64,000 nucleotides of DNA from Escherichia coli (GTDB lineage Bacteria; Pseudomonadota; Gammaproteobacteria; Enterobacterales; Enterobacteriaceae). The stretch is from NCBI RefSeq assembly GCF_009931435.1, contig NZ_CP043414.1; one strand, 5' to 3'. Positions 24,868 to 61,680 of this stretch are shown one piece after another (the first letter of the stretch is position 1; every line of letters begins with the position of its first letter). The translations under genes and the position numbers were made by a program. The notes beneath the pieces were generated by a model. That model saw nothing but the letters and a program-made list of their open reading frames with translations, ran no database searches and was not told where the DNA came from.

Positions 24868-24870
24868 TTT

Positions 24871-24947
24871 GCATCCGTAGCTCAGCTGGATAGAGTACTC
24901 GGCTACGAACCGAGCGGTCGGAGGTTCGAATCCTCCCGGATGCACCA
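24871..24947 (+). tRNA. argV: tRNA-Arg (anticodon ACG)
   Basis: GCATCCGTAGCTCAGCTGGATAGAGTACTCGGCTACGAACCGAGCGGTCGGAGGTTCGAATCCTCCCGGATGCACCA; 3 nt after serV. Confidence 0.93.
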
Positions 24948-25082
24948 TATTCTACGAAATCTTCAGCAATGAAGGTGTCGAAGAGGTGGCGGTACTAACC
25001 GCAAGCACCAGGGAGGATAACGTTGCTTTAGCAACGGCCCGAAGGGCGAGCCGTAAGGCGAGTAATCCTCCCGGATGCACCA
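24948..25082 (+). repeat. Spacer repeat unit ending in a tRNA-Arg 3'-terminal fragment (aatcctcccggatgcacca)
   Basis: About 135-nt unit after argV; its last 19 nt duplicate the T-arm/acceptor 3' end plus CCA of tRNA-Arg without the rest of the tRNA. Confidence 0.6.
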
Positions 25083-25146
25083 TCTCTTACTTGATACGGC
25101 TTTAGTAGCGGTATCAAAAAATCTGCAGTAAAGTAAGTTTCCCGAT

Positions 25147-25223
25147 GCATCCGTAGCTCAGCTGGATAGAGTACTCGGCTACGAACCGAGCGGTCGGAGG
25201 TTCGAATCCTCCCGGATGCACCA
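25147..25223 (+). tRNA. argY: tRNA-Arg (anticodon ACG)
   Basis: Identical 77-nt tRNA-Arg copy; spacing to neighbours (276 and 140 nt) matches the argVYZQ arrangement as I recall it. Confidence 0.9.
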
Positions 25224-25286
25224 TCTCTTACTTGATATGGCTTTAGTAGCGATATCAATATCAGCAGTAAAGTAAGTTCTCCCGAT

Positions 25287-25363
25287 GCATCCGTAGCTCA
25301 GCTGGATAGAGTACTCGGCTACGAACCGAGCGGTCGGAGGTTCGAATCCTCCCGGATGCACCA
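25287..25363 (+). tRNA. argZ: tRNA-Arg (anticodon ACG)
   Basis: Identical 77-nt tRNA-Arg copy. Confidence 0.9.
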
Positions 25364-25498
25364 TATTCTCCGAAATCTTCAGCAATGAAGATATCGAAGA
25401 GGTAGCGGAATTAACCGCAGGCACCAGGAAGGATAACGTTGCTTTAGCAACGGCCCGAAGGGCGAGCCGCAAGGCGAGTAATCCTCCCGGATGCACCA
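25364..25498 (+). repeat. Spacer repeat unit ending in a tRNA-Arg 3'-terminal fragment
   Basis: Near-identical copy of the 24948-25082 unit after argZ. Confidence 0.6.
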
Positions 25499-25561
25499 TC
25501 TCTTATTTGATATGGCTTTAGTAGCGGTATCAATATCAGCAGTAAAGTAATTTCTCCCGAT

Positions 25562-25638
25562 GCATCCGTAGCTCAGCTGGATAGAGTACTCGGCTACGAA
25601 CCGAGCGGTCGGAGGTTCGAATCCTCCCGGATGCACCA
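25562..25638 (+). tRNA. argQ: tRNA-Arg (anticodon ACG)
   Basis: Identical 77-nt tRNA-Arg copy; last gene of the operon. Confidence 0.9.
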
Positions 25639-28547: not shown

Positions 28548-28620
28548 AAAAAGGCCACTCGTGAGTGGCCAAAATTTCATCTCTGAATTCAGGGATGATG
28601 ATAACAAATGCGCGTCTTTC
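28548..28620 (-). ncRNA. micA: MicA (SraD) small regulatory RNA
   Basis: Minus strand reads GAAAGACGCGCATTTGTTATCATCATCCCTGAATTCAGAGATGAAATTTTGGCCACTCACGAGTGGCCTTTTT, the MicA sequence as I recall it, with its terminator hairpin GGCCACTCACGAGTGGCC and T-run; located between gshA and luxS. Confidence 0.85.
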
Positions 28621-37267: not shown

Positions 37268-37350
37268 TTGTAGGCATGATAAGACGCGGCCGCATCGCAT
37301 CAGGCATTGTGTACAGAGTGGCGGATGAGGCAAAAGCGCCTTATCCGCCC
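37268..37350. repeat. REP-like palindromic element between ygaY and proX
   Basis: gtaggcatgataagacgcggccgcatcgcatcaggc ... gcggatgaggcaaaagcgccttatccgc. Confidence 0.45.
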
Positions 37351-39474: not shown

Positions 39475-40669
39475 TATTTACCCCCTCACGATCTAAAGCG
39501 CGCAGCAGCATTCCTTTCGAAATGATGCCGACATACTGTTGGTCCTCGTCGACCACGGGCACCGCACAGGGCGCTTGTCCGACATGAGAGAGCAACTCGC
39601 TAAGAGGCGTTTGCGCATCGACTGCTAATGGCGCATCAATCAGCGCCGCATCAAGACCTTGCTGCTGCGTTAACGCGGTTTTAAGCGAATCGATAGACAC
39701 AGCGCCGACAAACTTATTACCGCGTTCGATAACGTAGCCATATTCGCGGTCTTCATCCTGCAATAATTTCAATGCCGAACGTGGGCCGAAGCCAGGGGTT
39801 TTACGAATTAAGCCATTCGGTGTCCGACGGGCAATATCTTTCGCACTGAATACCTGACTAATATCAACGCCACGGAAGAAGGTACGGACATAATCATTCG
39901 CCGGATTATTGAGAATTTCATCCGGTGTGCCAACCTGCACCACTTCACCATTTTGCATAATGGCAATTCGGTCGCCAATACGCATCGCTTCGTCGAGATC
40001 GTGAGAAATAAAGACAATGGTACGTTGATGTTTCGCCTGTAATTTTACCAGCTCATCCTGCATCTCAGTGCGAATTAATGGATCAAGCGCCGAGAAGGCT
40101 TCGTCCATTAATAATATATCCGGATTAATTGCTAATGCGCGGGCTAATCCGACGCGTTGACGCATCCCACCAGAGAGTTCGTCCGGGTAGCTATGGGCAT
40201 AATTTTCCAGCCCGACCTGACGCAGTGCATCAAGGGCTTTTTCCCGGCGTTCTTCGGCATTAATTCCGGCCAATTCCATACCGAATGCAGTATTGTCCAG
40301 CACGGTCATATGCGGCATTAAGGCAAAGGACTGGAAGACCATCGCAATCTTTTTTCTGCGCACCTCACGGAGTTCGGCGTCGGATATTTTGGCAATATCC
40401 ACACCATCAATCAGCACTTGCCCGCGGGTGGGTTCAATCAGGCGATTGAGAAGGCGTACCATTGTGGATTTACCCGAACCGGATAATCCCATGATGACAA
40501 ATATCTCGCCTTCTTCAATGGCCAGACTGGCGTCTTTTACGCCAAGCGATAGCCCGGTTTTTTCCAGAATTTGTTCTTTTGAAAGTCCTTGTTCGATATA
40601 TTTGAACGCTCGCTGAGGATGCTCGCCAAATATTTTATAGAGATTTTTAATTTCTAATTTAATTGCCAT
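39467..40669 (-). CDS. proV: Glycine betaine/proline ABC transporter ATPase (with C-terminal CBS domains)
   Basis: 400-aa ORF with Walker [10 protein letters not shown] and ABC signature LSGGMRQR. Confidence 0.95.
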
Positions 40670-41023
40670 GCAATAGAAAGATTCCTGTTATTTGTTTATG
40701 TCGATACATTACCCAATGGAAATAGTCACTTTTTTCTACCCTAACATACTGAGAATCTGAGGCAACCCCTGATGGCAAATGTGGCATGAATATTGATGCG
40801 AGCAAATCGCCGGAATTTCCCATGATATAAGGGCTGAGAGCAAATCGAGAAAGTTGATATTTTTTGTCATAGATAGCGAAAAAACGCCTGAATATTGTGG
40901 TTTCAGGCGAATAATGCAACAGAGTATCAGTGTAGATCACCACAAAATATTTGCGTGATAAAAAGCTATTTGGCAGGAATTATTTCCCTACTGTGGTTGG
41001 TGATATTTTTGAAAATAACACAC

Positions 41024-41992
<969 letters not shown>

Positions 41993-44137
41993 TTAAAGTG
42001 CACAGGAGACGCAGCCTTCAATTTCAGTGCCTTCCAGCGCCATCTGACGCAGGCGGATGTAGTAGAGCGTTTTGATACCTTTGCGCCAGGCGTAAATCTG
42101 CGCTTTGTTGATATCGCGAGTGGTGGCGGTATCGGGGAAAAACAGTGTCAGCGACAGCCCCTGATCGACATGGCGAGTCGCTTCGGCGTAGGTGTCGATG
42201 ATCTTTTCTGCGCCGATTTCGTAAGCGTCCTGATACAGCGCCAGATTCTCGTTAGTCATAAATGGGGCAGGGTAGTAAACGCGTCCTGTTTTGCCTTCTT
42301 TGCGTATCTCTACTTTCGCCACAATCGGATGAATACTCGACGTGGCATGGTTGATATAAGAGATGGAGCCGGTTGGCGGCACTGCCTGGAGATTCTGGTT
42401 GTAAATGCCATAGCGCATCACGTCGTCGCGCAGTTGCGCCCACATTTCGCGGGTAGGTAACGTGATGCTGCTACGAGCAAACAACTCGCCAACTTTCGCC
42501 GTTTTCGGTTGCCAGTTACCTTGCAGATATTGGCTAAAATATTCACCGCTGGCATAGCGTGACTGTTTGAACCCGGCGAAGGTTTCACCGCGTTCGCGCG
42601 CCAGCAACATTGAGGTACGCAGCGCGTGCCAGGTGATGGTGTAGAAATAGAGATTGGTGAAATCCAGTGCTTCCGGCGAACCATAGGCGATGCCTTCTCG
42701 CGCCAGATAACCGTGTAAATTCATCTGCCCCAGACCGATAGCGTGTGAGGCGGCATTTCCGGCTTCGATGGACGGCACGCTGCGAATATGACTCATATCT
42801 GACACCGCAGTTAAACCGCGTACGGCGATCTCTACCGTGCGGGCAAAATCGGGGGAATCCATGGTGTGGGCAATATTCAACGAACCTAAATTGCAGGAAA
42901 TATCATGGCCTGTGCGGGCATAGTCGAGATTCTCGTCATACTCTGAGGCGCTGTTAACCTGCAAAATTTCTGAGCAGAGATTGCTCATATTTATACGCCC
43001 GGCAATAGGGTTAGCACGGTTAACCGTGTCTTCATACATGATGTAGGGATAGCCGGACTCAAACTGGATCTCCGCCAGTCGCTGGAAGAAATCACGGGCG
43101 TTGATGTATTTTTTGCGGATTCGCTCATCGGCAACCAGTTCGTCATAGTGTTCACTGATGGCGATATCGGCAAACGGCTTGCCATAAACACGCTCAACGT
43201 CATAGGGCGAAAACAGTGCCATCTGCGCATTCTCTTTTGCCAGATGGAAGGTGATATCCGGGATAACCACGCCCAGCGACAGTGTTTTAATGCGGATTTT
43301 CTCGTCGGCATTTTCCCGCTTTGTATCGAGAAAACGCAGTATATCGGGATGATGGGCATGTAAATAGACTGCGCCAGCACCCTGACGCGCGCCGAGCTGG
43401 TTGGCATAGGAAAATGCGTCTTCCAGCATTTTCATCACCGGAATCACGCCAGAAGATTGATTTTCAATACGTTTAATTGGCGCGCCCGCTTCCCGCAGAT
43501 TCGACAGCAAAAATGCCACGCCGCCGCCGCGTTTCGACAGTTGTAGTGCGGAATTTACCGCCCGGCCAATCGACTCCATATTGTCTTCAATACGCAGCAA
43601 AAAACAGGAAACCAGTTCGCCGCGCTGCTGCTTACCACAGTTGAGGAATGTCGGTGTTGCAGGCTGAAAGCGTCCTGACAGCATCTCATCGGTCAGTTGC
43701 GTCGCCAGTGTTTTATCGCCTTGTGCCAGCGTCAGCGCCACCATCGTGACTCGATCGGCAAAATCTTCCAGATAACGCTTACCGTCGAATGTCTTCAACG
43801 TATAGCTGGTGTAAAACTTCCATGCTCCGAGGAATGTCTGAAAACGAAAACCGCTGGCGTGTGCGTGGGCAAATAGCGTAATGACAAATTCGCGAGAGTA
43901 ACGGTTGAGGACGCTTTCATCATAGTAACCCTCGTTGACCAGCCAGTTCAGGCGCTGCTGTTGGCTGCTGAAGGTCACGCTATTCGGGCGTACATGCGTC
44001 GCCAAAAATGCATCTACTGCCTGGCGGTCTTTATCGAACTGAATGCGACCCGCGTTATCGTAAATATTAAGCATCGCATTCAGAGCGTGGTAATCCATCG
44101 TTTCCTGCGTCAGGCGTTCTGCGGTTGTCGTTGCCAA
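41993..44137 (-). CDS. nrdE: Class Ib ribonucleotide reductase alpha subunit
   Basis: 714-aa ORF ending ...EGCVSCAL. Confidence 0.95.
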
Positions 44138-44520
44138 AATTCGGTTACTCCTTTACGAACGTTTTCGATATCGCTTTGCGTACCCATGAGTTCAAAGCGG
44201 TACAGCCACGGCACGCCGCATTTCCGGGCAATCACATCTCCGGCGCGGCCATACGCCTCACCAAAGTTGCGATTACCCGAAGCAATAACGCCGCGAAGCA
44301 ACGCCCGGTTGTGCTCGTCGTTTAAAAAGCGAATGACCTGCCGTGGCACCGCGCCAGCCGTACCGCCGCCGCCGTAAGAGGGCACGATCAGGATGTAAGG
44401 CTCGTCTACCTGAATCCGTTCCCGCTCATTGAGCGGGATGCGCACCGCGGGCAGTCCTAAACGTTCGATAAAACGCTGCGTATTTTCGGAGCTGCTGGAA
44501 AAGTAGACGAGTTGGCTCAT
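44110..44520 (-). CDS. nrdI: Flavodoxin-like NrdI (class Ib RNR activation)
   Basis: 136-aa [24 protein letters not shown]... Confidence 0.93.
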
Positions 44521-44762
44521 GCACTGGCCGCGTGTGGCGCTGGATGCAGACGATTGATCATGTCCGGGCGGAAACCAGACCAGCTAAGATCTCCTGCAAT
44601 CACTACCGGCAACTGACGAAAGCCCTGAGCACGTAACGCTTCCGCCGCTTCAGGAACGCGATCGACATTAATCATTTCAAAATCAAAGCCCCGGTTTTCC
44701 ATCGCCCGTTTGGTGGCGTGGCACTGAACGCAATCGTTACGAGTGTAAATAGTAATGCGCAT
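44517..44762 (-). CDS. nrdH: Glutaredoxin-like protein NrdH
   Basis: 81-aa ORF with CVQC redox motif. Confidence 0.93.
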
Positions 44763-44970
44763 GATTCGTATTTCCGTTTAAAATGAAGATACGGCGCGAT
44801 GATACGCGTCGGGTTGTCTCTCTGTTGATACAGAGATACTAGATGTAGTTGAAAAAAGATTCAACCATACAAGATATGGGAATTTTAGATTGATTACACC
44901 ACCGATGAATGGCTCAACGGGGTAGGGGATTTTGTGTTTTTTTGCCGGGCGATTGCCCGGCATCAGGAAG

Positions 44971-45402
44971 TTACATCCGCATGGAAACGGCCAGGCGGTT
45001 AAAGCAATTCATCAGCCCGATGGCAAATGTTAAGTCGCTGATTTCTGCTGCGCTGAAATGCTCAAGCAAAGGCTGATAAACGTCGTCTTCCGCATGGGTT
45101 CGGGCAATATCGGTCACCGATTCCGCCCATGCCAGCGCCGCCCGCTCGCGATCGTCAAAATGATGGCTTACGCGCCAGCCTGCCAGGGCATCCAGCTTAT
45201 GCTGCGGCACACCGGATTTGCGTAATGCTTTGCTGTGCATCTCCAGACAAAATGCGCAACCATTGATTTGCGAGACGCGCAAATAAACTAACTCCATCAG
45301 CGTAGTTTCCAGCGTGCTATTTTCCAGCGCCGTTTTGGCCTGCACCAGCGCGTTATATACCGTTGGGCTAAGTTCGTAGTAAGGCTGACGTAATGTAGTC
45401 AT
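44971..45402 (-). CDS. AhpD-like / carboxymuconolactone decarboxylase family protein
   Basis: 143-aa ORF with CxxCxxxH signature (NGCAFCLEMH); strong AGGAG SD; divergent from a MocR-type regulator. I do not recall a gene here in K-12. Confidence 0.7.
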   Translation of the reverse strand: MTTLRQPYYELSPTVYNALVQAKTALENSTLETTLMELVYLRVSQINGCAFCLEMHSKALRKSGVPQHKLDALAGWRVSHHFDDRERAALAWAESVTDIARTHAEDDVYQPLLEHFSAAEISDLTFAIGLMNCFNRLAVSMRM

Positions 45403-45489
45403 ACAGTTTCTCCTCTTATTAACGCCCGCAATGTAGCACTATAATGGACTGCTAAAGAGAGCCATAAATTACCTAAAAAAGCAGACCAT

Positions 45490-46824
45490 ATGCCGCGCTA
45501 TCAGGATATCGCCCGTCAGTTAAAAACGGCTATTGAGCAAGGGGAACTGAAACCCGGCGCAAGGCTACCTTCAAGTCGTACCTGGTCGCAGGAACTGGGG
45601 GTGTCTCGATCCACTGTCGAAAATGCGTATGCTGAGCTGGTGGCGCAAGGATGGCTGATCAGGCGGGGACAGGCTGGCACATTTGTCAGTGAGCAGATAT
45701 ATCCGCAACAATCTACTGTACAAGTTGTGTCTTTTGCCGGTGAAAGTCAGCAACCGTTGCCATTTCAAATGGGATTACCCGCACTCGATCTCTTTCCGCG
45801 AGAGCTGTGGGCGCGGGTGATGGGGCGTCGCCTTCGTACCCAGACGCGCTTTGATTTGGCGTTAGGCGATGTCTGCGGTGAGGCGGCGTTGCGTGAGGCA
45901 ATAGTTGATTACTTACGCGTTTCACGTGGGATTGATTGTCAGCCAGAGCAGGTCTTTATCACTCACGGTTATGCGGCCTCAATGGCTTTAATTCTGCACG
46001 CGCTGGCGAAACCGGGAAACGGGATGTGGATGGAAGATCCCGGCTTTCCACTGATTCGCCCGATTGTCACTCGCCACGGTGTGGAAATTTTGCCTGTGCC
46101 GGTTGATGACAACGGACTGGATATCACAAGCGGAATACAAAATTATCCTGATGCGTGTTTTGCCCTGATAACACCAGCACACCAAAGCCCGCTGGGTGTG
46201 GCGCTCTCTTTAGCGCGCAGGCATCAGATACTGGAATGGGCAGAGCGTAGTCAGGCATGGATTATTGAAGATGATTATGACAGTGAGTTTCGCTATCACG
46301 GTAAGCCGTTACCGGCGTTAAAAAGTCTCGATGCACCGCAGCGGGTAATTTATGCCGGAACATTCAGCAAAGCACTATTTCCTGCATTGCGCTGTGCGTG
46401 GCTGGTGGTGCCGGTGAAGCAAATTGCACAATTCCGCCACCAGGCGTCACTGGCTCCATGTGCGGTACCTGTTCTATGGCAGAACACACTGGCAGACTTT
46501 CTTCGCGAGGGGCATTTCTGGCGGCATCTGAAGAAAATGCGTCAGCATTATGCTCAACGTCGGCAATGGATTGAGCAAGCGTTGACGCAGCAGGGATTTC
46601 AGGTTGTGCCGCAGAAAGGTGGTATCCAGATGGTGATCAGAATGATGGGCGATGATATTGCCCATGCGCGTAAAGCCAATGCTGCAGGCCTTGCGGTGCA
46701 GGCACTTAGCGACTGGCGTATCCGCTCAAGTGGGGAAGGTGGATTACTTCTCTCGTTTACCAATATCGTTAACGAAGGTATGGCGCGACAGGTAGCACAA
46801 CAATTACGTAAAGCCTTAAGCTAA
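45490..46824 (+). CDS. MocR/GabR-type regulator (GntR wHTH fused to PLP-dependent aminotransferase-like domain)
   Basis: 444-aa ORF; N-terminal GntR HTH (YQDIARQLKTAIEQGELKPGARLPSSRTWSQELGVSRSTVENAYAELVAQGWL), C-terminal class-I aminotransferase-like region with candidate PLP lysine (FSKALFP). Confidence 0.75.
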   Translation: MPRYQDIARQLKTAIEQGELKPGARLPSSRTWSQELGVSRSTVENAYAELVAQGWLIRRGQAGTFVSEQIYPQQSTVQVVSFAGESQQPLPFQMGLPALDLFPRELWARVMGRRLRTQTRFDLALGDVCGEAALREAIVDYLRVSRGIDCQPEQVFITHGYAASMALILHALAKPGNGMWMEDPGFPLIRPIVTRHGVEILPVPVDDNGLDITSGIQNYPDACFALITPAHQSPLGVALSLARRHQILEWAERSQAWIIEDDYDSEFRYHGKPLPALKSLDAPQRVIYAGTFSKALFPALRCAWLVVPVKQIAQFRHQASLAPCAVPVLWQNTLADFLREGHFWRHLKKMRQHYAQRRQWIEQALTQQGFQVVPQKGGIQMVIRMMGDDIAHARKANAAGLAVQALSDWRIRSSGEGGLLLSFTNIVNEGMARQVAQQLRKALS

Positions 46825-46879
46825 AAAACCCCGAAATCAGGTTCCGGGGTCAAGACGCGTATTTATTATCATTGTTGCA

Positions 46880-47209
46880 CTACGATTTGCGCATGCTTAA
46901 CAGTGCGCCGATAAAAATACCAACCGCAGCTGCTGTACCCACGCTACACCAGGGTCTTTCACGAACAAAAGAATCCGCGCAGCCAACGGCATCGCGCGCG
47001 GCTTGCTGAACGCGAGTACGACCATGCATTCGCGCTCTGGTTTCTTTCAGTAGAGCCTGCGCTTTACTACGAGCGGCTTCGGCTTCCCCTTTGGCGTCGC
47101 TGCCCCAGGACTTCAATACAGATTCGAGGCTGTCAGCTAATTGATTGACATCATTCTGGATATCCTGCACGCCATCATCAACGTCGTTGCGGTTCGGTCG
47201 GTTAAACAT
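46880..47209 (-). CDS. ygaM: ElaB/YqjD/DUF883 family ribosome-associated membrane-anchored protein
   Basis: Track ORF to 47221; ATG at 47209 gives MFNRPNRNDVDDGVQDIQNDVNQLADSLE..., 109 aa, C-terminal TM. Confidence 0.85.
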   Translation of the reverse strand: MFNRPNRNDVDDGVQDIQNDVNQLADSLESVLKSWGSDAKGEAEAARSKAQALLKETRARMHGRTRVQQAARDAVGCADSFVRERPWCSVGTAAAVGIFIGALLSMRKS

Positions 47210-47360
47210 ATGATCCCCCATTAGAATTCGATGTAATTTTCAGTGTAGACCATAATTTTCTTAACTGAGGTTCATCGCGGCTTTATGGACTTTTCTGAAA
47301 GCGTTGTGAATGCGCAATCAGGTAAGGTAGGCCCGCGGTTGATAATAACGAGGATCAAAT

Positions 47361-47705
47361 ATGTATTTACGACCAGACGAGGTGGCGCGCGTACTTGAAA
47401 AAGTCGGTTTTACTGTCGATGTGGTAACTCAGAAAGCGTATGGTTACCGCCGTGGGGAAAATTATGTCTATGTTAATCGCGAAGCGCGAATGGGACGTAC
47501 CGCTCTGGTAATTCATCCAACATTAAAAGAACGCAGTTCAACACTGGCTGAACCCGCTTCCGATATTAAAACGTGCGACCATTACCAGCAATTTCCGCTC
47601 TATTTAGCGGGTGAACGTCATGAGCATTACGGTATCCCACATGGCTTTAGTTCGCGTGTTGCGCTTGAACGTTATTTGAATGGTTTATTTGGCGAAGCCA
47701 GTTAA
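47361..47705 (+). CDS. ygaC: DUF2002 family protein
   Basis: 114-aa [25 protein letters not shown]...; synteny. Confidence 0.85.
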
Positions 47706-47741
47706 AGACGCGACTGGCGATGCCAGTCGCGAAAAGAAGGG

Positions 47742-48191
47742 TCAGGCTTTTACCTGCTGGTAACGGCTGACTTTAAACAGTCGGCGGCAATAATCGAGGA
47801 AGTAGCCATAAACCGCCCCCATCAACATCGAAACAACGATGTTTGAACTGACCGCAGCCATAATCTGATGCCAGTCTGCGCCCACCACTAACAAGATCGC
47901 CACATACACCGGTGACTGGAACGTCACATACGCCAGGATATCCGCCAGATTTTTTACCCAGCCCGACGGACTAACTTTGCGTGCCGCGCGCATAAACAGA
48001 TCGCGGTACATACCGTATGGCCATGCAATTAAGATGTTCACCGGAATCGCTACCAATCTGGAATAAAGAGACTGTTCGAAGCTCATTCCGGAGAGGAAAA
48101 CTTCAATACACATGTTCACGACAGAACAGTAAACAACCATCGCGAACGTATCTGCAACTGCATGACGCAAGCGTGACTGCGGTGAGAACAT
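47742..48191 (-). CDS. alaE: L-alanine exporter
   Basis: 149-aa membrane ORF adjacent to stpA. Confidence 0.88.
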
Positions 48192-48857
48192 GCTAATGCT
48201 CCTTAATAAAAGCGTAATGGGACGTTAATAGAGATGAAAGCAGTGGATCTCATTGCCATCTGCATTTTCGCATAGCGTATATCGCTGGCTATGACTAATC
48301 AATTAGTGAAAAATTTTTATTTAATCTGTTTTTGTAGATAAAATATTCCGTAGCGGCGCGTTTTTTGTACATTGTGGATTTTTACATGCTGATATGATTT
48401 ATTTTTAATTAAATCAATTAGATATGGGCGTATCTTTATTTTCACTAATGAAAGTTTGGGGGTGAGGTAACGCTATAAGCGTAGAGAATTCGGTGTATGC
48501 AGTGACTGGGTCATTTTCAGCATTTTTTATGCCAGACAATGTACATTAACAGCAGAAAGCACCAGTGAGTGATGTTTATTTTTATTCGTATATATTGCAT
48601 TTTTATTCGATTTGGTTTTATCAGGCTTGCGGAATTAGCGAGCAGAGAGCGCCGCTCTGTTCACCAATAACCGAAATTACTCATCAAATTGGCTAATATA
48701 TAATCTTGAAATTATTCTGAGAGTTTCAGAAAATAACAGCTGAAATAATCTCGTGCAGGACTGTAAATAGATTAAATTTTGTGGAAATATAATAAGTGAT
48801 CGCTTACACTACGCGACGAAATACTTTTTGTTTTGGCGTTAAAAGGTTTCCTTTATT

Positions 48858-49262
48858 ATGTCCGTAATGTTACAAAGTCTAAATAACATTCGCACTCTCC
48901 GTGCGATGGCTCGCGAATTCTCCATTGACGTTCTTGAAGAAATGCTCGAAAAATTCAGGGTTGTCACTAAAGAAAGACGTGAAGAAGAAGAACAGCAGCA
49001 GCGTGAACTGGCAGAGCGCCAGGAAAAAATTAGTACCTGGCTGGAGCTGATGAAAGCTGACGGAATTAACCCGGAAGAGTTATTGGGTAATAGCTCTGCT
49101 GCCGCACCACGCGCTGGTAAAAAACGCCAGCCGCGTCCGGCAAAATATAAATTCACCGATGTTAACGGTGAAACTAAAACCTGGACCGGTCAGGGCCGTA
49201 CACCGAAGCCAATCGCTCAGGCGCTGGCAGAAGGTAAATCTCTCGACGATTTCCTGATCTAA
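48858..49262 (+). CDS. stpA: H-NS paralogue, DNA-binding/RNA chaperone
   Basis: 134-aa [39 protein letters not shown]... with C-terminal TWTGQGRTP motif. Confidence 0.95.
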
Positions 49263-49308
49263 TTACTGAGGCCGGATGTCGCTGCTATGGCGCGTCCGGC
49301 GTCGCTTC

Positions 49309-49833
49309 TCAAGCTTGTTGGTTCCACGGCATCTTATCTAACAACCTTGCCATCCCACAAAAACCGCTAATTCCTGCAAACAGTAACCCGGCACCAACAA
49401 AGCCGCTTAATAAGAAGAAACCGCTATTTACGGTATAACCCAGTACAACACCGATTAATATTAAACCACCCGCGGCGATCTGCACCTGGCGCATTAACGG
49501 CAAGGGTTGAGATTTATTTACCGCTACTGGCAATCCTGCTTTTTTCCAGCCATCAATCCCATCTTCGAGTAAAAAGATTTCTGCGGGTGCGGCAATCGCT
49601 GCTAATTTATCGGCGTTATTACTGGTGCGTTTACCTGCCTGGCAGTGGAAGATAATTTGCTCACGACGTAATTTAGCCGGAAGACCTGACTGTTCGAGCA
49701 CAGATAATGGAGCCAGATCTGCTTCAGGAATATGTTCACGAAGATATTCATCAGCATCACGAATATCGATTAACTTTGCGCCGCGTGCGATTAATTCTTG
49801 TGCATCATGCGGCGAAATGGTTGTCAAAGCCAT
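49309..49833 (-). CDS. ygaP: Rhodanese-domain inner membrane thiosulfate sulfurtransferase
   Basis: 174-aa ORF with rhodanese active-site Cys ([10 protein letters not shown]) and C-terminal TM helices. Confidence 0.88.
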
Positions 49834-49842
49834 AGTGACTCC

Positions 49843-50142
49843 TTACGGACAATAGACATTTTTCAGGGTGGCGATAATGGCATTTACCGCCTCATTTTTA
49901 ATGGAATATAGAATGCGTTGGGCATCCCGTTGGCTGTCGATAAGCCCTTCGTCTCGCATACGCGCGAGATGCTGTGATGTCGCAGAGGCACTCAATCCGG
50001 TAATGCGCGTCAGCTCTCCCGCGCTGGTACCGGGGGAACCGCTAAGCATGCACAGAATCAGCAACCGTTTGGGGTGGCTCATTGCTTTCAATAAGGCTGC
50101 TGCCTGTTCGGCACTGGCCTGTAATTGCGCGAGTTCAGTCAT
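49843..50142 (-). CDS. ygaV: ArsR/SmtB-family transcriptional repressor
   Basis: 99-aa ORF with wHTH; upstream of and co-oriented with ygaP. Confidence 0.88.
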   Translation of the reverse strand: MTELAQLQASAEQAAALLKAMSHPKRLLILCMLSGSPGTSAGELTRITGLSASATSQHLARMRDEGLIDSQRDAQRILYSIKNEAVNAIIATLKNVYCP

Positions 50143-50324
50143 AGTTATTTAAGTATTTTCTAAATTAAGTAAACTCTAAACTAAAAATACAACATATGCC
50201 AGCATCAGCAGCGTAAATGAGAGTAAAAGCGTAAGCTGAAACTGGCAGGCTCCGCTAAAATTACTACGCTTAAGAGATAAAATCTCTTTTTAAACAATGA
50301 GTAATTTTCTTATAGGGAGTACAT

Positions 50325-50483
50325 ATGGGTTTCTGGAGAATCGTCATCACCATCATTCTGCCGCCGCTCGGCGTGCTGCTCGGTAAAGGGTTCGGTTGGG
50401 CGTTCATTATTAATATTCTGCTGACACTGCTTGGGTATATCCCCGGTTTGATTCACGCGTTCTGGGTGCAAACCCGCGATTAA
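50325..50483 (+). CDS. yqaE: Pmp3/UPF0057 family small membrane protein (52 aa)
   Basis: Not in the ORF track (under 60 aa). ATG at 50325 to TAA at 50481-50483 translates to MGFWRIVITIILPPLGVLLGKGFGWAFIINILLTLLGYIPGLIHAFWVQTRD; GGGAG SD upstream. Confidence 0.8.
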   Translation: MGFWRIVITIILPPLGVLLGKGFGWAFIINILLTLLGYIPGLIHAFWVQTRD

Positions 50484-50566
50484 ACCTGTCCTCACCCCCG
50501 CGGCGTTAACGCGCCGCGTTCCTCTGCTACACTTTCTGAGTGTTTCCGTTAACGAATGAGGTAGCT

Positions 50567-51016
50567 ATGGGTCTGTTCAATTTTGTGAAAGATGCTGGAG
50601 AAAAACTCTGGGACGCGGTTACAGGTCAGCACGATAAAGACGATCAGGCGAAGAAGGTGCAGGAGCATTTGAACAAAACCGGTATACCTGATGCCGATAA
50701 AGTGAATATTCAAATTGCCGACGGCAAAGCGACGGTCACTGGTGACGGCTTAAGTCAGGAGGCGAAGGAGAAAATCCTTGTTGCGGTGGGGAATATTTCC
50801 GGTATTGCCAGTGTCGATGATCAGGTGAAAACGGCGACACCAGCCACTGCCAGCCAGTTTTATACCGTTAAGTCTGGCGACACTCTGAGTGCCATTTCCA
50901 AACAGGTCTACGGTAATGCCAATCTGTACAATAAAATCTTCGAAGCGAATAAACCGATGCTAAAAAGCCCGGATAAAATTTACCCGGGGCAAGTGTTGCG
51001 TATTCCTGAAGAGTAG
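50567..51016 (+). CDS. kbp: K+-binding protein with BON and LysM domains
   Basis: Track ORF from 50540; ATG at 50567 gives [18 protein letters not shown]..., 149 aa; C-terminal LysM ([31 protein letters not shown]). Confidence 0.88.
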
Positions 51017-51679
51017 TTAATTGCCAGCCATTGCTTGCTGGATAATGGGAATTGGCGTCAGTAAATGCTGGCGCATTAACTCACTGGCGCGCGCGGTATC
51101 TCGCGCCAGTACCGCCGCAGTCAGGGTCTGGTGCTGATCGCGTTTATCCTCCAGCATTTCCACCGAAAGCACTGTTCGCCGCAGCCAGATAAATCGATAG
51201 CGCGCCGCCAGATCAAACAACCGTTCACGCATTTGCAGCAAATAGTGAGAACCACAGCCCGCCACAATTGCCGTATGAAACGCCTGATGACGCAGATCCC
51301 ACTCATCAAGCATTTTCTCACTGGCGTCACAGGCCTCCAGCTTACTCAGCAGATGCGCTTTTGCGAGAACGTCTGCCTCCCATTCATCGCCACCGCGGGC
51401 AATCGCCAGACTGACCAGCATCGCTTCCATATTGGCGCGGGCGTCGAAAATATCGAGCAGCTCCTGCTCTGACATAGACGCCACCCGATACCCTTTTTGA
51501 TTCACCACCGTGACCAGTCGTTCTGCTACCAGTTGCGAAAGCGCTTCCCGCAACGGCCCAACGCCAAGTGCATAACGCGATGTCAGCAAACTCATCCGTA
51601 ATTTTTCATCCGGTTGAAAATTACCGCGAATAATATCGTTCTTCAGCCAGCGATAGCCATCCAGAGACGTAATGGTCAT
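51017..51679 (-). CDS. csiR: GntR/FadR-family repressor of csiD-gab operon
   Basis: Track ORF to 51697; ATG at 51679 gives MTITSLDGYRWLKNDIIRGNF..., 220 aa. Confidence 0.88.
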   Translation of the reverse strand: MTITSLDGYRWLKNDIIRGNFQPDEKLRMSLLTSRYALGVGPLREALSQLVAERLVTVVNQKGYRVASMSEQELLDIFDARANMEAMLVSLAIARGGDEWEADVLAKAHLLSKLEACDASEKMLDEWDLRHQAFHTAIVAGCGSHYLLQMRERLFDLAARYRFIWLRRTVLSVEMLEDKRDQHQTLTAAVLARDTARASELMRQHLLTPIPIIQQAMAGN

Positions 51680-51699
51680 GGTGTGACTCCTGATCATTA

Positions 51700-53100
51700 T
51701 TAGCGCGTATTATGAACGGGTGTTTTTTGCCACAATACCAGTTTTTTCCAGCGCGCCATAATCGGCACGGTACAGATTATCCCTATCGCTAATAAACCGG
51801 TGGAGATCACTTCTAACTGTTGCGCCGGGCGGAATAGCATCACTACCAACACAAAGGTAATAAAGCCGATTACCAGCCAGGTGAGCCACGGGTAAAGCCA
51901 CATTCGCAGGCGAATTTCGCTTCCTTCTGCTCGCAGGATTTTGCGCATTCGTAATTGCGAAACGGCGATGACTAAATAAACCAGCAGGGCGATAGCGCCG
52001 GAGCTGTCGATCAGAAATTTAAACACTTTCGCCGGTGCGTAATAGTTAACCACCACCGTTAAAAACGCCGCGCCGGTGGAGAGTAACACCGCCACGTACG
52101 GGGTTTTACTGCGGTTAATTTTGCCCATTACCGCGGGTGCATCACCGCGACGGCTTAAGGAGTAGAGCATCCTTGACGCGGTATACAGCGCCGAGTTCAG
52201 GCAACTGGTTACGGAAAGTAATATCACGCAGTCCATGATTAATTTCGCATGAGGAATATTGAGCAATTCCAGAACCGAGCGATAAGATCCAACGGCTTTC
52301 AGTCCCGGCATATTCCACGGTATTAATGCCACGACGACAAAAATAGAGCACAAATAGAAGATAGAAATACGCCAGATAACCGAGTTGGTGGCGCGGACAA
52401 TATGTTTTCCCGGCGTGTCGGATTCCGCGGCGGCAATGGTGACAATTTCTGCGCCCATAAACGAGAACATGGTGATCAACATCGCGCTTAATACCGCACC
52501 GAAGCCATTGGGCATAAAGCCGCCGCTATCCCACAATCTTGAGATCCCGCTCACTTCGGCATACGGGTAAAAACCGCTAATTGCGACTGCACCAAGGAAT
52601 ATAAATGCCAGAATGGCAATGACTTTGCACAGCGCCAGCCAGAACTCAAATTCGCCGTAGTTTTTAACGCTTAATAAATTACTGCCAGTTAAGGCGAGGG
52701 TAATGACGAGGGAAAACAACCAGATAGGAATGCCTGGAACCCACGAGTGCAGGATCATGGCGGCGATATTGGCTTCCAGCGGGATAACCAGTACCCAAAA
52801 CCACCAGTACAGCCAGCCGATGGTATAACCCGCCCAACGACCAATAGCTTTATCGGCATAGGTGGAAAACGAACCCGTGTCGGGCGTGGCAACCGCCATT
52901 TCCGCCAGCATTCGCATAATCATAACCACCAGTAATCCGGCGAACAGATAGGCCAGTAATACCGCTGGACCCGCTTCGGCGATGGCGACGCTGGAACCGA
53001 CAAACAGACTTGCGCCGATAACACCGGCAATAGACAACATGGTGACGTGGCGTGACTTCAGCCCGCCGCCTAACTCATGTGGTTGCGATGATTGCCCCAT
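51700..53100 (-). CDS. gabP: GABA permease (APC family)
   Basis: Track ORF to 53163; ATG at 53100 gives MGQSSQPHELGGGLKSRHVTMLSIAGVIG..., 466 aa. Confidence 0.92.
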   Translation of the reverse strand: MGQSSQPHELGGGLKSRHVTMLSIAGVIGASLFVGSSVAIAEAGPAVLLAYLFAGLLVVMIMRMLAEMAVATPDTGSFSTYADKAIGRWAGYTIGWLYWWFWVLVIPLEANIAAMILHSWVPGIPIWLFSLVITLALTGSNLLSVKNYGEFEFWLALCKVIAILAFIFLGAVAISGFYPYAEVSGISRLWDSGGFMPNGFGAVLSAMLITMFSFMGAEIVTIAAAESDTPGKHIVRATNSVIWRISIFYLCSIFVVVALIPWNMPGLKAVGSYRSVLELLNIPHAKLIMDCVILLSVTSCLNSALYTASRMLYSLSRRGDAPAVMGKINRSKTPYVAVLLSTGAAFLTVVVNYYAPAKVFKFLIDSSGAIALLVYLVIAVSQLRMRKILRAEGSEIRLRMWLYPWLTWLVIGFITFVLVVMLFRPAQQLEVISTGLLAIGIICTVPIMARWKKLVLWQKTPVHNTR

Positions 53101-53194
53101 CCTGAATCCTCTCGAAAGTGTGTCACTTGGGAGAGCGCCCCGACATTTCCCGCGTCGGGTCACGCGTGTAATTGTTATTGGTTCTTTTTGCCGG

Positions 53195-53420
53195 AGAGCG
53201 GCTCCGCCTTATCCGGCCGACATAGATTTATTCCTGTTCACGTACAGATTGTCGGATGCGGCGTAAACGCCTTATCCGACTTGGATTCTCGTAGGCCGGA
53301 CAAGACGCGAAGCGTCGCCTCCGGCATGGTGCGCCGAATGTCGGATGCGGCGTAAACGCCTTATCCGACCTACATTTCCGTAGGCCGGACAAGACGCAAA
53401 GCGTCGCCTCCGGCATGGGT
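53195..53420. repeat. Cluster of REP/BIME elements including two tandem ~80-bp units
   Basis: gtcggatgcggcgtaaacgccttatccgac...gtaggccggacaagacgc(g/a)aagcgtcgcctccggcatgg occurs twice (about 53251-53328 and 53340-53417), preceded by a third partial copy. Confidence 0.6.
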
Positions 53421-53426
53421 GCGGTG

Positions 53427-54707
53427 CTACTGCTTCGCCTCATCAAAACACTGGCTGATGATCTCCAGACCCTGACGGATCTGAGCATCTTCAATAGTGA
53501 GCGGGACAAGGATGCGCAGCACGTTGTAATACGGGCCGCAGGAGAGAAGAATCAGGCCTTTATCGCGGGCGCGCGCCACGATGTCGGCGGTGAGTTTGGC
53601 GTCCGGTTTACTGTGATCGCCACCTTCAAACAGCTCGATAGCAATCATCGCCCCCAGCCCGCGAACGTCGCCTACCTCAGTGTGTTTTTCGGCGATCGCC
53701 AGCAATCCGTCTTTCAGCTTTTGCCCCAGATCGTTGGCTTTTTGCAGCAGATTTTCCTGTTCAAACACCTTCAACACTTCCAGCGCCGCGACGCAGGCAA
53801 TCGGGTTACCCGCATAAGTGCCGCCTAAGCCGCCCGGAGCGACAGCGTCCATCACTTCGGCGCGCCCGGTGACGCCCGCCAGCGGGAAACCGCCTGCGAT
53901 CGATTTCGCAAAGGTGGTGAGATCAGGTGCCACGCCCATTTGTTCCATCGCAAACAGCGTGCCGGTACGCCCCGCGCCGCTTTGCACTTCATCGGCAATC
54001 AACATGATCCCGTGCTCGTCACACAGCGCACGTAAACGCTGCATAAAGGCTGGCGTCGCGGCGTAGAAACCGCCTTCGCCCTGAACCGGCTCAATCACGA
54101 TGGCGGCGATATCTTCCGGCGCCGCGTCATTTTTAAAAATTCGGTGAATACTTGCGATAGCGTCATCTTCACTGATCCCGTGGAGCGGGCAAGGATAAAG
54201 CGCGCGATAAACATGGCCCGGCATCAGGCCCATCCCAGCAGAGTACGGATTCACCTTGCCAGTCAGCGCCAGCGTATAGTGCGTGCGCCCGTGATACGCG
54301 CCGCTAAAGGCGATGGTGCCGCTACGTTTGGTGGCGGCGCGGGCGATTTTCACCGCGTTTTCCACCGCTTCGGAACCAGTCGTCACCAGCAGCGTTTTTT
54401 TGGCAAAATCGCCTGGCACCTTCTGATTCATAATCTCGCACAGCTCCAGATACGGCTCGTAGGCCAGCACCTGGAAGCAGGTGTGCGACAGTTTTTTCAA
54501 CTGCGCTTCCACCGCCGCAACCACTTTCGGATGCAGGTGCCCGGTATTGAGCACCGCAATCCCGCCCGCGAAATCAAGATACTCACGGCCTTCAACGTCC
54601 CACACCCGGCAGTTTTCCGCGCGGTCAGCGAAAATCGGGTGAATTTGCCCAACGCCACGGGGAATCGCCTGACTGCGGCGTTGCATTAACTCTTTATTGC
54701 TGCTCAT
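53427..54707 (-). CDS. gabT: 4-aminobutyrate aminotransferase (PLP-dependent)
   Basis: 426-aa ORF MSSNKELMQRRSQAIPRGVG... Confidence 0.95.
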   Translation of the reverse strand: MSSNKELMQRRSQAIPRGVGQIHPIFADRAENCRVWDVEGREYLDFAGGIAVLNTGHLHPKVVAAVEAQLKKLSHTCFQVLAYEPYLELCEIMNQKVPGDFAKKTLLVTTGSEAVENAVKIARAATKRSGTIAFSGAYHGRTHYTLALTGKVNPYSAGMGLMPGHVYRALYPCPLHGISEDDAIASIHRIFKNDAAPEDIAAIVIEPVQGEGGFYAATPAFMQRLRALCDEHGIMLIADEVQSGAGRTGTLFAMEQMGVAPDLTTFAKSIAGGFPLAGVTGRAEVMDAVAPGGLGGTYAGNPIACVAALEVLKVFEQENLLQKANDLGQKLKDGLLAIAEKHTEVGDVRGLGAMIAIELFEGGDHSKPDAKLTADIVARARDKGLILLSCGPYYNVLRILVPLTIEDAQIRQGLEIISQCFDEAKQ

Positions 54708-54720: not shown

Positions 54721-56169
54721 TTAAAGACCGATGCACATGTATTTGATTTCTAAATAATCTTCGATGCCATACTTCGAACCTTCACGACCCAGCCCCGAGG
54801 CTTTTATGCCGCCGAACGGGGCCACTTCATTGGAAATAATGCCGGTATTGATACCGACGATGCCGTATTCCAGCGCCTCGCCCACGCGGAAGACGCGGCT
54901 TAAATCACGGGCGTAAAAATAGGCGGCAAGGCCAAACTCGGTGTCATTGGCCTGCGCAATCACATCGGTTTCATCTTTAAAGCGGAACAGCGGGGCGAGG
55001 GGGCCGAACGTCTCTTCTTTCGACACTTTGGCGTTGGCCGGAACATCCACCAGAATGGTCGGCTGGAAGAAGTTGCCGCCGCGTTCATGCGCTTTGCCTC
55101 CGCAAACCACGCGCGCGCCTTTCTCCAGCGCATCGGCGATATGCTCTTCCACTTTTGCTACCGCTTTTTCATCGATCAGTGGCCCAATGGTGACGCCTTT
55201 TTCCAGCCCATCACCGATGTGCAGTTTGCTCACCGCCTGCTGCAATTTTTCGGCAAAGCGGTCATACACGCCGTCCTGCACATACAGGCGGTTGGCGCAG
55301 ACGCAGGTTTGCCCGGCGTTACGGAATTTCGAGGCCAGCGCGCCTTCCACGGCTTTATCGAGATCGGCATCGTCAAAGACAATAAACGGTGCGTTGCCGC
55401 CCAGCTCCAGCGACACTTTTTTGATGTCTTTCGCGCACTGTTCCATTAACTGACGGCCAATTTCGGTCGAGCCGGTAAACGACAGCTTGCGCACCAGCGG
55501 ATTGCTGGTCAGTTCGTTACCGACCGCGCCCGCCGAACCGGTGACCACGTTAAATACGCCAGCCGGAATGCCCGCGCGAATCGCCAGCTCTGCCAGCGCC
55601 AGCGCAGAGAACGGCGTCTGACTGGCGGGCTTCAGCACCATCGTGCAGCCTGCCGCCAACGCCGGACCGGCTTTACGGGTAATCATCGCCGCCGGGAAGT
55701 TCCACGGCGTGATAGCGGCGGTAACGCCAATCGGCTGCTTGATAACAATCAGGCGTTTATCGGCCTGATGACCGGGAATGGTGTCGCCATAAATACGCTT
55801 GCCTTCTTCGGCAAACCACTCAATAAAGGAGGCGGCGTAGCTGATTTCGCCTTTCGCTTCAGCCAGCGGTTTACCCTGTTCGAGGGTCATCAGGCGCGCT
55901 AAATCGTCCTGGTGCTCCATCATCAAATTGAACCAGTTACGCAGAATGTTGGCGCGCTCTTTGGCGGTAAGGGCACGCCAGGCGGGCAGGGCGCGGTTGG
56001 CGGCGTCGATAGCGGCGCGGGTTTCATCTGCGCCCATTTTGGGTACGCTACCCAGCTTGTCGCCGTTTGCCGGATTAGTGACCTCGATGACTTCGCCATT
56101 GTTGGCGTCCAGCCACTCCCCGTTAATTAACGCCTGCTGGCGGAATAAGTTACTGTCGTTCAGTTTCAT
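54721..56169 (-). CDS. gabD: Succinate-semialdehyde dehydrogenase [NADP+]
   Basis: 482-aa aldehyde dehydrogenase ORF. Confidence 0.95.
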   Translation of the reverse strand: MKLNDSNLFRQQALINGEWLDANNGEVIEVTNPANGDKLGSVPKMGADETRAAIDAANRALPAWRALTAKERANILRNWFNLMMEHQDDLARLMTLEQGKPLAEAKGEISYAASFIEWFAEEGKRIYGDTIPGHQADKRLIVIKQPIGVTAAITPWNFPAAMITRKAGPALAAGCTMVLKPASQTPFSALALAELAIRAGIPAGVFNVVTGSAGAVGNELTSNPLVRKLSFTGSTEIGRQLMEQCAKDIKKVSLELGGNAPFIVFDDADLDKAVEGALASKFRNAGQTCVCANRLYVQDGVYDRFAEKLQQAVSKLHIGDGLEKGVTIGPLIDEKAVAKVEEHIADALEKGARVVCGGKAHERGGNFFQPTILVDVPANAKVSKEETFGPLAPLFRFKDETDVIAQANDTEFGLAAYFYARDLSRVFRVGEALEYGIVGINTGIISNEVAPFGGIKASGLGREGSKYGIEDYLEIKYMCIGL

Positions 56170-56191: not shown

Positions 56192-57460
56192 TTATTGATT
56201 AAAGGCGGCGTGTAAGGCATCCACACTACGTGCCGCTCGCAGCGTGCGTCCGGGGTTACTCTGGCTTGCCAACAGCGTTTGTACCTTGCTGACAATATGC
56301 GCACCAATAGGAATTGCTGATGTCGCTGCCGGGGAGGGCGCATTGCAGGTGTGGATCGTGCGCGGGGTAGTGACAAACAGAAAATCGTCAATCAGCTTAC
56401 CGTCCGGCGATACTGCCTGCGCACGCACACCGGCGGGCCAGGGCTGGAGATCGCTTAACGAAAGCCCGGGACAATACTTTTGCACCAGCCGCAGATAGCC
56501 GCTTTTGCACAGCGAGTTTTTCATCTCGCCCAGTCCTGAGCGTAGATGGTTTTGCAGCACCCGGCGAATCCCCGACGAGCCCAAAATCTCCAGCGTGTCG
56601 CTAAATGAGAAGTCGCGCTTGCGATAGCCTTCGCGTTTGAACGCCAGCACCGCGTTTGGCCCGACGGTCACGCTGCCGTCGATCATACGAGTGAGATGAA
56701 CGCCCAAAAATGGCATTGTCGGGTCGGGTATGGGGTAAATCAGGTGGTTAACAATCTGGTTATGCTCCGGCGCAAGGCGGAAATATTCGCCACGGAACGG
56801 GCAAATGATAAAGCCCGGCTTGAGGCCGAGCATTTTCACCAGCCGGTCAGCCATCAGCCCGGAACAGCTAATCAGCGTCGATGCTTCATATTCGCCGCCC
56901 TGACGGGTCCGTATTACCACGCCCTTTTTATGCTCATTGAGAGCGCTGACTTCGGCGTTATAAATAATCTCGCCGCCTCTGGCCTGGAAGATTTTTGCCA
57001 TCGCCGCTGTCACTTCGCGGTAGCTGACAATACCGCTGGACGGCACAAAAATGCCGCCCAGTCCGGTGATATTCGGTTCGTGCTCGCGTAGCTCCTCGGC
57101 GTTTAACCACTCGCGCTCGATCCCGTTCGCCGCCGTGCGTTCCCATAAGCCGCGCATCCGTTCCATTTCGAGTTCAGACGTGGCGACCAGCATCTTGCCG
57201 CAGTTGTCGTAGCGAATGCCGTTTTGCTCGCAAAAGGCTTTGGTGGCGCGGTTTCCCGCCAGGCAAAACTGCGCCTTCAGGCTGCCGGGTGTGTAATAGA
57301 CCCCGGCATGGATCACGCCGCTGTTGTGGCCCGTCTGGTGACAGGCCGGGCCGGACTCTTTTTCCAGCAACGCAATGCGGGCATCCGGATAGACATCAAT
57401 CAGTTGCATGGCGGTCGACATGCCAATGATGCCGCCGCCAATAATCACAAAATCATACAT
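56192..57460 (-). CDS. lhgO: L-2-hydroxyglutarate oxidase/dehydrogenase (FAD)
   Basis: 422-aa ORF with N-terminal FAD motif VIIGGGIIG. Confidence 0.93.
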   Translation of the reverse strand: MYDFVIIGGGIIGMSTAMQLIDVYPDARIALLEKESGPACHQTGHNSGVIHAGVYYTPGSLKAQFCLAGNRATKAFCEQNGIRYDNCGKMLVATSELEMERMRGLWERTAANGIEREWLNAEELREHEPNITGLGGIFVPSSGIVSYREVTAAMAKIFQARGGEIIYNAEVSALNEHKKGVVIRTRQGGEYEASTLISCSGLMADRLVKMLGLKPGFIICPFRGEYFRLAPEHNQIVNHLIYPIPDPTMPFLGVHLTRMIDGSVTVGPNAVLAFKREGYRKRDFSFSDTLEILGSSGIRRVLQNHLRSGLGEMKNSLCKSGYLRLVQKYCPGLSLSDLQPWPAGVRAQAVSPDGKLIDDFLFVTTPRTIHTCNAPSPAATSAIPIGAHIVSKVQTLLASQSNPGRTLRAARSVDALHAAFNQ

Positions 57461-61604: not shown

Positions 61605-61680
61605 GGCCCTTTAGCTCAGTGGTTAGAGCAGACGACTCATAATCGCCTGGTCGCTGGTTCAAGTCCAGCAAGGGCCACCA
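61605..61680 (+). tRNA. ileY: tRNA-Ile2 (anticodon CAU, lysidine-modified type)
   Basis: GGCCCTTTAGCTCAGTGGTTAGAGCAGACGACTCATAATCGCCTGGTCGCTGGTTCAAGTCCAGCAAGGGCCACCA; cloverleaf with anticodon loop CTCATAA; adjacent to ygaQ as in K-12. Confidence 0.9.

Follow-up and report, generated by a model that had tools for sequence, protein, structure and literature searches.

Introduction

Newbury and colleagues are said to have identified, in 1987, the intercistronic REP sequence between malE and malF as a stabilizer of the upstream mRNA (cited in PMC12306157). REP sequences combine into composite elements of which two families bear on the present locus. In BIME-1, which is found singly, a z1 and a y REP are joined by a long, conserved L linker, often with an IHF site in it. 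In BIME-2, a short S linker joins z2 and y REPs of inverse orientation, and the units are repeated in tandem, in numbers that differ from strain to strain at a given locus (Ton-Hoang et al. 2012, PMC3333891). In vitro, TnpA-REP (RAYT) cleaves and recombines BIMEs, making the assembly of extra REP units possible (Ton-Hoang et al. 2012, PMC3333891). The Y-l-Z2 modules of REP325, the archetypal BIME-2 between tandem genes, are the basis of naRNA4 and its Rfam family RF02564 (Qian et al. 2015, PMC4550694). REP325 stabilizes the upstream mRNA and attenuates downstream transcription, partly in a Rho-dependent manner, and tandem gene pairs that contain REPs have an elevated ratio of upstream to downstream expression genome-wide; the variance from locus to locus is large, and terminal REPs have no general effect on half-life (Harris et al. 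2026, bioRxiv 10.64898/2026.03.23.713779).

Here we analyze a stretch of 64,000 nucleotides of Escherichia coli DNA (the window). An earlier note on this DNA had described two REP/BIME units in tandem, with a third partial copy, in the spacer between gabP and gabT, had ascribed gyrase and IHF binding and a possible effect on mRNA stability between gabT and gabP to such arrays, and had proposed a comparison of copy number between strains.

Results

The gab locus of the window

The lineage of the window belongs to the E. coli/Shigella group and is without a close relative among 5,426 complete E. coli genomes: for the 12 kb from 40000 to 52000 the top identity to these genomes is 98.9%, and none reaches 99%. 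NCBIfam equivalog models identify gabT and gabP on either side of the spacer (Table 1), which confirms the location given before, and together with their neighbors these genes form the distal part of the csiD-lhgO-gabDTP-csiR region of an E. coli/Shigella-group chromosome. The spacer extends over 326 bp from the gabT stop codon TAG (53429-53427) to the gabP ATG (53100-53098), and the REP array and a solitary REP beside it are wholly extragenic, lying between that stop and that start. The K-12 RefSeq annotation carries no repeat feature at the gabT-gabP spacer. Three open reading frames, at 53092-53355 (+), 52982-53266 (+) and 53228-53509 (-), were set aside as spurious; they cross the REP palindromes or overlap gabT or gabP; across the stretch that they occupy (52982-53509), naRNA4 was the sole Rfam match in a scan by E-value.

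The window holds other RNA genes as well. The MicA sRNA gene, which is expected in this part of the chromosome, lies at 28549-28620 (-), where Rfam RF00078 scores 83.9 bits (gathering score 41). A five-tRNA cluster at 24775-25635 (+), which resembles the serV-argVYZQ cluster, consists of one 90-nt tRNA followed by four that score alike (67.1 bits) and lie ~140-275 bp apart, and a single further tRNA gene is found at 61605-61677 (+).

Anatomy of the array

Tandem Repeats Finder reports one array, at 53250-53423 (period 89, 1.9 copies, 91% matches, score 299), and a repeat search recovers two 83-nt copies, 53247-53329 and 53336-53418, offset by 89 nt and with 92% identity. Two near-identical tandem palindromic units are therefore present, as had been noticed, each REP being an imperfect palindrome; the units are 89 bp long and span 53250-53426, and the interval 53195-53420 first assigned to the repeats is accurate to within a few bases. 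Read along the mRNA (minus) strand, the gabT stop codon TAG is followed by 12 nt, z2, 6 nt, y, the head-to-head linker, z2, 6 nt, y, 27 nt, the solitary REP and the 90-nt gabP leader. In all, five hairpins are found in the spacer. They are 35-36 nt long and every one is interrupted by a bulge or mismatch, in keeping with the description of a REP as an imperfect palindrome of 30-40 nt with internal mismatches.

Table 1. The gab genes and the elements of the gabT-gabP spacer, in order along the minus strand (positions are those of the window)
Feature	Position	Strand	Basis or remark
lhgO	56192-57460	-	NCBIfam equivalog
gabD	54721-56169	-	NCBIfam equivalog
gabT	53427-54707	-	NCBIfam GabT equivalog model covers 1-426/426
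gabT stop codon TAG	53427-53429	-	ORF and NCBIfam match
Short gap past gabT stop	53416-53426	-	with unpaired T 53415, 12 nt to the first paired base
z2-type REP, unit b; on the mRNA strand TGCCGGAGGCGACGCTTTGCGTCTTGTCCGGC+CTAC	53380-53415	-	hairpin -20.3 kcal/mol; z-like census, 0 mismatches
S-type tail-to-tail linker, unit b; 6 nt (GGAAAT) between CTAC and GTAG	53374-53379	-	sequence
y-type REP, unit b; GTAG intact, GTAG+GTCGGATAAGGCGTTTACGCCGCATCCGAC	53339-53373	-	hairpin -18.8 kcal/mol; y-like census, 0 mismatches
Head-to-head linker, unit b to unit a, with adjacent bases ATTCGGCGCACCAT	53327-53338	-	comparison with one-unit flanks
z2-type REP, unit a	53291-53326	-	hairpin -20.3 kcal/mol; census match
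Tail-to-tail linker, unit a; 6 nt (GAGAAT)	53285-53290	-	sequence
y-type REP, unit a; GTAG decayed to CCAA	53250-53284	-	hairpin -18.9 kcal/mol; census match
naRNA4-like module: y of unit b, head-to-head linker, z2 of unit a	53294-53370	-	RF02564; sense to gab mRNA
Non-REP spacer, 27 nt, array to solitary REP	53223-53249	-	sequence
Solitary degenerate y-like REP	53188-53222	-	hairpin -16.3 kcal/mol; D2 repeat family CGCCTTATCCGGCCGAC
gabP leader and start codon (ATG 53100-53098)	53098-53187	-	sequence; GabP equivalog
gabP	51700-53100	-	NCBIfam GabP equivalog covers 1-466/466 with translation start at 53100
csiR	51017-51697	-	NCBIfam equivalog

What had been called a third partial copy is real, and amounts to half a unit; it is not a truncated unit, being a complete degenerate hairpin, GCCGGAGAGCGG-CTC-CGCCTTATCCGGC, oriented like the y REPs of the array. 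Where those read GTCGGA..TCCGAC, it reads GCCGGA..TCCGGC, so that both sides of one stem pair have changed and pairing is kept. The conserved REP tetranucleotide GTAG/CTAC stands at the stem foot of both z2 REPs and of the y REP of unit b, and the solitary REP has TGTC at this place; where the y REP of unit a has CCAA in the window, other strains have CCAG.

Downstream, the gabP leader carries at 53140-53160 a hairpin of the form CCCGAC-N9-GTCGGG, which precedes the gabP ATG by some 40-60 nt. Roughly 75 nt ahead of this ATG are retained in all alleles examined, the REP-free one included, and the hairpin region could be a gabP-specific leader element.

The array lies far beyond chance, as shuffled sequences give no matches: 0.00 matches to the strict REP consensus are expected in the shuffled window, and a looser census of y and z types counts 9 REP-like hairpins in the 64 kb and 0 in each of 20 shuffles. 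By this census the gabT-gabP array is the sole multi-unit REP array of the window. Other REPs are a single canonical y REP at 653-682, a tail-to-tail pair of y and z at 7955-8037 and a more degenerate pair at 37274-37349. As is characteristic of a dispersed, multicopy sequence, a search with the spacer and its flanks matches at a median of 5 places in an E. coli genome.

The array is a BIME-2

The gabT-gabP element is a BIME-2, consisting of two tandem 89-bp units of a y and an inverted z2 REP, plus the one solitary degenerate REP, and the REP/BIME identity proposed in the earlier note is thereby correct. On the mRNA strand the REPs alternate as z2-y-z2-y; the S linker is short, with 6 nt between CTAC and GTAG (or the decayed CCAA) in both units; and the tandem copies vary between strains, 1, 2 or 3 units being found at the same site. 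The assignment to z2 is supported by the match of the y-linker-z2 segment, above threshold, to the naRNA4 model, so that the choice of z2 over z1 reflects similarity to a REP325-based Rfam model and not the original z1/z2 consensus figures; an 'atypical BIME' would be the alternative label.

That match, to RF02564, has a score of 71.1 bits, above the gathering score of 59.5, and covers model positions 1-77/77. The number of such matches is zero for the one-unit K-12 allele, one for the window, with its two units, and two for the three-unit allele. A match therefore indicates sequence class, not function, the family being in effect a profile of the BIME-2 head-to-head module, and an Rfam naRNA4 match at this locus marks a BIME-2 junction and not a demonstrated sRNA gene.

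IHF binding is a property of BIME-1, and the attribution of it to this array is not supported. The array has tandem units and tail-to-tail linkers of 6 nt, and the IHF consensus WATCAANNNNTTR is absent from both strands of the spacer even at one mismatch. With both this site and the L linker missing, IHF binding is rejected and the IHF label is unfit for the gabT-gabP element.

Unit number varies among E. coli strains

We searched 5,426 complete E. coli genomes with the spacer and its flanks, with the three-unit allele and with the alternative allele, and then dissected representative loci. The comparison that the earlier note had proposed shows that copy number does vary, with alleles of 1, 2 and 3 units and a REP-free allele. 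One unit, in a spacer of 236-237 bp, is the state of ~4,025 genomes (~74%), K-12 MG1655, O157:H7 and E2348/69 among them. Two units occur in at least 3 genomes, RMDEC465 and N96 (326 bp, near-identical to the window) and OZ197100.1 (331 bp); this count is a lower bound, because one-unit genomes reach 100% BLAST query coverage by using their one unit twice. The two-unit state of the window is thus real, though rare. Three units, in a spacer of 417-418 bp, are found in 26 genomes (e.g. DSM 103246 and strain 100181), and no allele with more than three units was present among the top-ranked matches. A further 1,305 of the ~5,425 genomes (~24%), including BAP1, strain C, O111 and others, have an unrelated 310-bp spacer that is REP-free, and ~66 genomes fall outside the one-, two- and three-unit and REP-free classes.

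In E. coli BAP1 the REP-free spacer (NZ_CM196089.1, 302-611) stands in place of ~53176-53426 of the window, that is, of the whole REP-bearing part. It carries a G+C-rich inverted repeat, GAGAGGGCCAGGGGAGGGTT ... AACCCTCTCCCCAGAGGGGCGAGGGG, which resembles the 'BoxC' class of E. coli dispersed repeats, and a core of ~39 nt is found elsewhere in genomes and on a plasmid. Neither an Rfam match nor the generic REP pattern was found in this 310-bp spacer.

Origin of the second unit

The head-to-head linker between units reads A[A/T]TCGGCGCACCAT in all multi-unit alleles. Its start corresponds to the AATC.. (AATCTG...) that follows the y REP in one-unit alleles (the right flank), and its end to the ..CGCACCAT that precedes the gabT-adjacent z2 REP in the same alleles (the left flank). 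Because the linker from unit to unit is a fusion of the two flanks of a single unit, the extra unit most likely arose by in-place tandem amplification of 89 bp, a few bases of the flanks among them. A flank-fusion linker is not what an insertion from elsewhere would leave. Compared with the linker of REP325, that of gabT-gabP matches at ~7 of 13 positions. The mechanism could be unequal recombination, slippage between REPs, or amplification by TnpA-REP (RAYT) as modelled by Ton-Hoang et al.

The units are not fresh copies, as the tail-to-tail linkers of the two differ (GGAAAT+GTAG in one, GAGAAT+CCAA in the other), and since the same linker variants stand at different positions in other alleles, the units have also been shuffled by recombination. 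The flanks carry a further record. Over 53101-53250 the window has SNPs of the K-12/E2348 type (GTGTCAC and GCGCCCC), whereas RMDEC465 and N96 share different ones (GTGACAC and GCGGCCC), so that the two-unit array is present on more than one haplotype. Its presence on the haplotypes of the window and of RMDEC465/N96 suggests that the array has moved by recombination or arisen more than once through recurrent amplification.

Predicted folding and transcription of the spacer

The folding energy predicted for the mRNA strand of the spacer is -165.4 kcal/mol (z = -7.45 relative to dinucleotide shuffles), and single REPs fold at -16.3 to -20.3 kcal/mol each. Across alleles, the predicted stability of the spacer is -100 kcal/mol with one unit, -154 with two and -194.5 with three. 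As predicted stability grows with unit number, the two-unit allele would be expected, under this folding model, to strengthen whatever effect the hairpins have. The stability of the hairpins is equal on the two strands (-94.6 and -92.3 kcal/mol), and folding thus cannot rank a role at the RNA level against one at the DNA level.

We found no sigma-70-like promoter in the gabT-gabP spacer, no promoter-like site in the gabP leader, and no intrinsic terminator on the minus strand within 53101-53426, the sole minus-strand match to the terminator search lying inside gabP. Both a gabP-specific sigma-70 promoter and an intrinsic terminator on the relevant strand of the spacer were therefore set aside. 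Lacking both, gabP appears to depend on read-through from upstream promoters, and a transcript that reads through into gabP carries all five hairpins.

RNA-seq of K-12 gives baseMeans of 86 for glaH, 277 for lhgD, 648 for gabD, 795 for gabT and 90 for gabP (Harris et al. 2026, bioRxiv 10.64898/2026.03.23.713779). From this table we obtain a drop of ~10-fold in RNA per kb from gabT to gabP, across a spacer that has one unit in K-12; the figures are averages over all samples of one study of the one-unit allele, and they combine attenuation with differential decay. A drop of this size at the spacer is what a stabilizer-attenuator model predicts. The effect on mRNA stability suggested in the earlier note agrees with this drop and with the literature on intercistronic REPs, and for the two-unit allele it is plausible, as is gyrase binding.

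Discussion

We consider it probable that the gabT-gabP element is a BIME-2 that arose in place and acts as an intercistronic RNA hairpin block, by which gabD-gabT would be stabilized and gabP attenuated, and that it is probably a gyrase site as well. This reading draws on analogy with described arrays. In the gabDTP mRNA, the upstream gabD-gabT message would be protected, the five stable hairpins (each of about -16 to -20 kcal/mol) acting as barriers to 3'-to-5' exonucleases. The same hairpins may hold back part of the transcription that would enter gabP, possibly with the aid of Rho, as at REP325, and the outcome would be more mRNA for the enzymes than for the permease. A slight reduction of GabT translation may also follow from the first stem, which begins 12 nt past the gabT stop codon. 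At the level of double-stranded DNA, the array probably serves as a gyrase cleavage site too, as published for BIME-2, and not as an IHF site. Our literature searches found no paper on Rho-dependent termination at gabT-gabP and nothing relevant on REPs in the E. coli gabT-gabP intergenic region. That REPs are absent at this site from ~24% of E. coli genomes speaks against strong selection for a function.

That same absence, with the variation between 1, 2 and 3 units, is what would be expected if the array were selfish or neutral, a by-product either of TnpA-REP (RAYT) proliferation or of unequal recombination or slippage, and if the unit numbers were neutral length variants. We regard this as a plausible account, falling a little short of probable. 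The flank-fusion linker is typical of simple tandem duplication, the in vitro activities of TnpA-REP on BIMEs extend to the assembly of extra units (PMC3333891), and the GTAG needed for TnpA-REP binding has decayed both in the y REP of unit a and in the solitary REP. However, the two-sided stem change of the solitary REP preserves pairing, the one-unit form is kept in ~74% of genomes and in lineages as distant as K-12, O157:H7 and E2348/69, and a neutral origin is compatible with an effect in cis once the array is transcribed. It is also possible, to a somewhat lesser degree, that the array acts mainly as DNA, as a strong, transcription-independent gyrase site with cruciform-prone y REPs that adjusts local supercoiling downstream of the gab genes, any effect on mRNA being secondary. 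BIME-2 elements are enriched in gyrase cleavage sites, which favor y REPs and increase when transcription is blocked, but only a subset of BIME-2 loci have them, and neither gabT nor gabP is named in two supplementary text files of the Topo-seq study (PMC6379681). Equal hairpin stability on both strands is as expected for a DNA palindrome, yet a role as DNA leaves the sharp gabT-to-gabP RNA drop in K-12 unexplained. The DNA-level role and the RNA hairpin block that we favor are compatible and do not exclude each other.

Two narrower readings concern parts of the array. The main effect might be translational, with terminating ribosomes stalled by the first REP stem, followed by mRNA cleavage, tmRNA tagging and less GabT. 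A REP stem fewer than 16 nt after a stop codon stalls terminating ribosomes and lowers translation of the upstream gene, according to the summary in PMC12306157 of Liang, Rudd and Deutscher 2015, and by that summarized limit gabT qualifies, the distance from the stop to the first paired base being 11-12 nt in all REP-bearing alleles examined. As the main effect we nevertheless think this unlikely, for it would be independent of the second unit and so leave the duplication unexplained, and in K-12 no gene of the operon has more RNA than gabT. The other reading takes the unit junction to be an naRNA4-like ncRNA, processed from the gab transcript, that with HU bridges cruciform DNA and condenses the chromosome, following the nucleoid model proposed for REP325 (Qian et al. 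2015, PMC4550694). The match to RF02564 does exceed its threshold over the full model length, in the sense of the gab mRNA and only in alleles of at least two units. Still, a family that is in effect a BIME-2 head-to-head profile speaks to class, not function, and the linker agrees with the model consensus at only ~6-7 of 11-13 positions. For REP325/naRNA4 itself, a study that includes the original senior author observed no measurable compaction of the nucleoid, no stable ternary complex of HU, cruciform DNA and naRNA4, and no HU-dependent long-range contacts between REPs (Harris et al. 2026, bioRxiv 10.64898/2026.03.23.713779). We hold this last reading to be very improbable.

The series of alleles with 0, 1, 2 and 3 units invites one further speculation, that it forms a heritable dial on the ratio of the GABA-catabolic enzymes GabD and GabT to the GABA permease GabP. 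Each added unit brings two hairpins, ~40-54 kcal/mol of predicted structure and one naRNA4-class module. We doubt that such a dial operates. Were it to, lineages would differ in the uptake of GABA relative to its catabolism while promoter and coding sequence stayed unchanged. The natural series, in a well-studied operon, is a possible test bed for the proposal that REPs serve as tunable 3'UTR dials. Beyond correct annotation, the significance of the locus is small: the two-unit allele is already present in public genomes, and the element class, its functions (gyrase cleavage, mRNA stabilization and attenuation) and its copy-number polymorphism are established, published knowledge.

Comparison with known systems

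The closest family is BIME-2 (Gilson/Bachellier nomenclature, PMC3333891), with which the gabT-gabP array shares alternating y and z2 REPs, a short tail-to-tail linker, tandem units, an extragenic position between co-directional genes, and a copy number that varies between strains at the same locus. Unlike a typical BIME-2, it has only two units, its tail-to-tail linkers differ from each other (GGAAAT and GAGAAT), and in one y REP the GTAG has become CCAA; its head-to-head linker was not matched to the named s, l or r types. BIME-1 (RIP/RIB) likewise pairs a y REP with an inverted z-type REP, but it is single-copy, contains z1 and carries its IHF site in a long, conserved L linker, whereas the gabT-gabP linkers are 6 nt long and without the IHF consensus.

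Two individual loci offer the nearest functional parallels. Like the REP325/naRNA4 array between yjdM and yjdN, the gabT-gabP array contains a y-linker-z2 segment above the RF02564 threshold, is located between tandem genes of an operon and shares their direction of transcription, and by this analogy stabilizer and attenuator behavior would be expected of it; unlike REP325, it has two units instead of six and a linker only about half identical. As between malE and malF, REP hairpins separate a more highly expressed upstream gene from a downstream gene for a membrane transporter, and protection of the upstream mRNA from 3' exonucleases would by analogy be expected, although gabT-gabP is a different locus with a different BIME composition.
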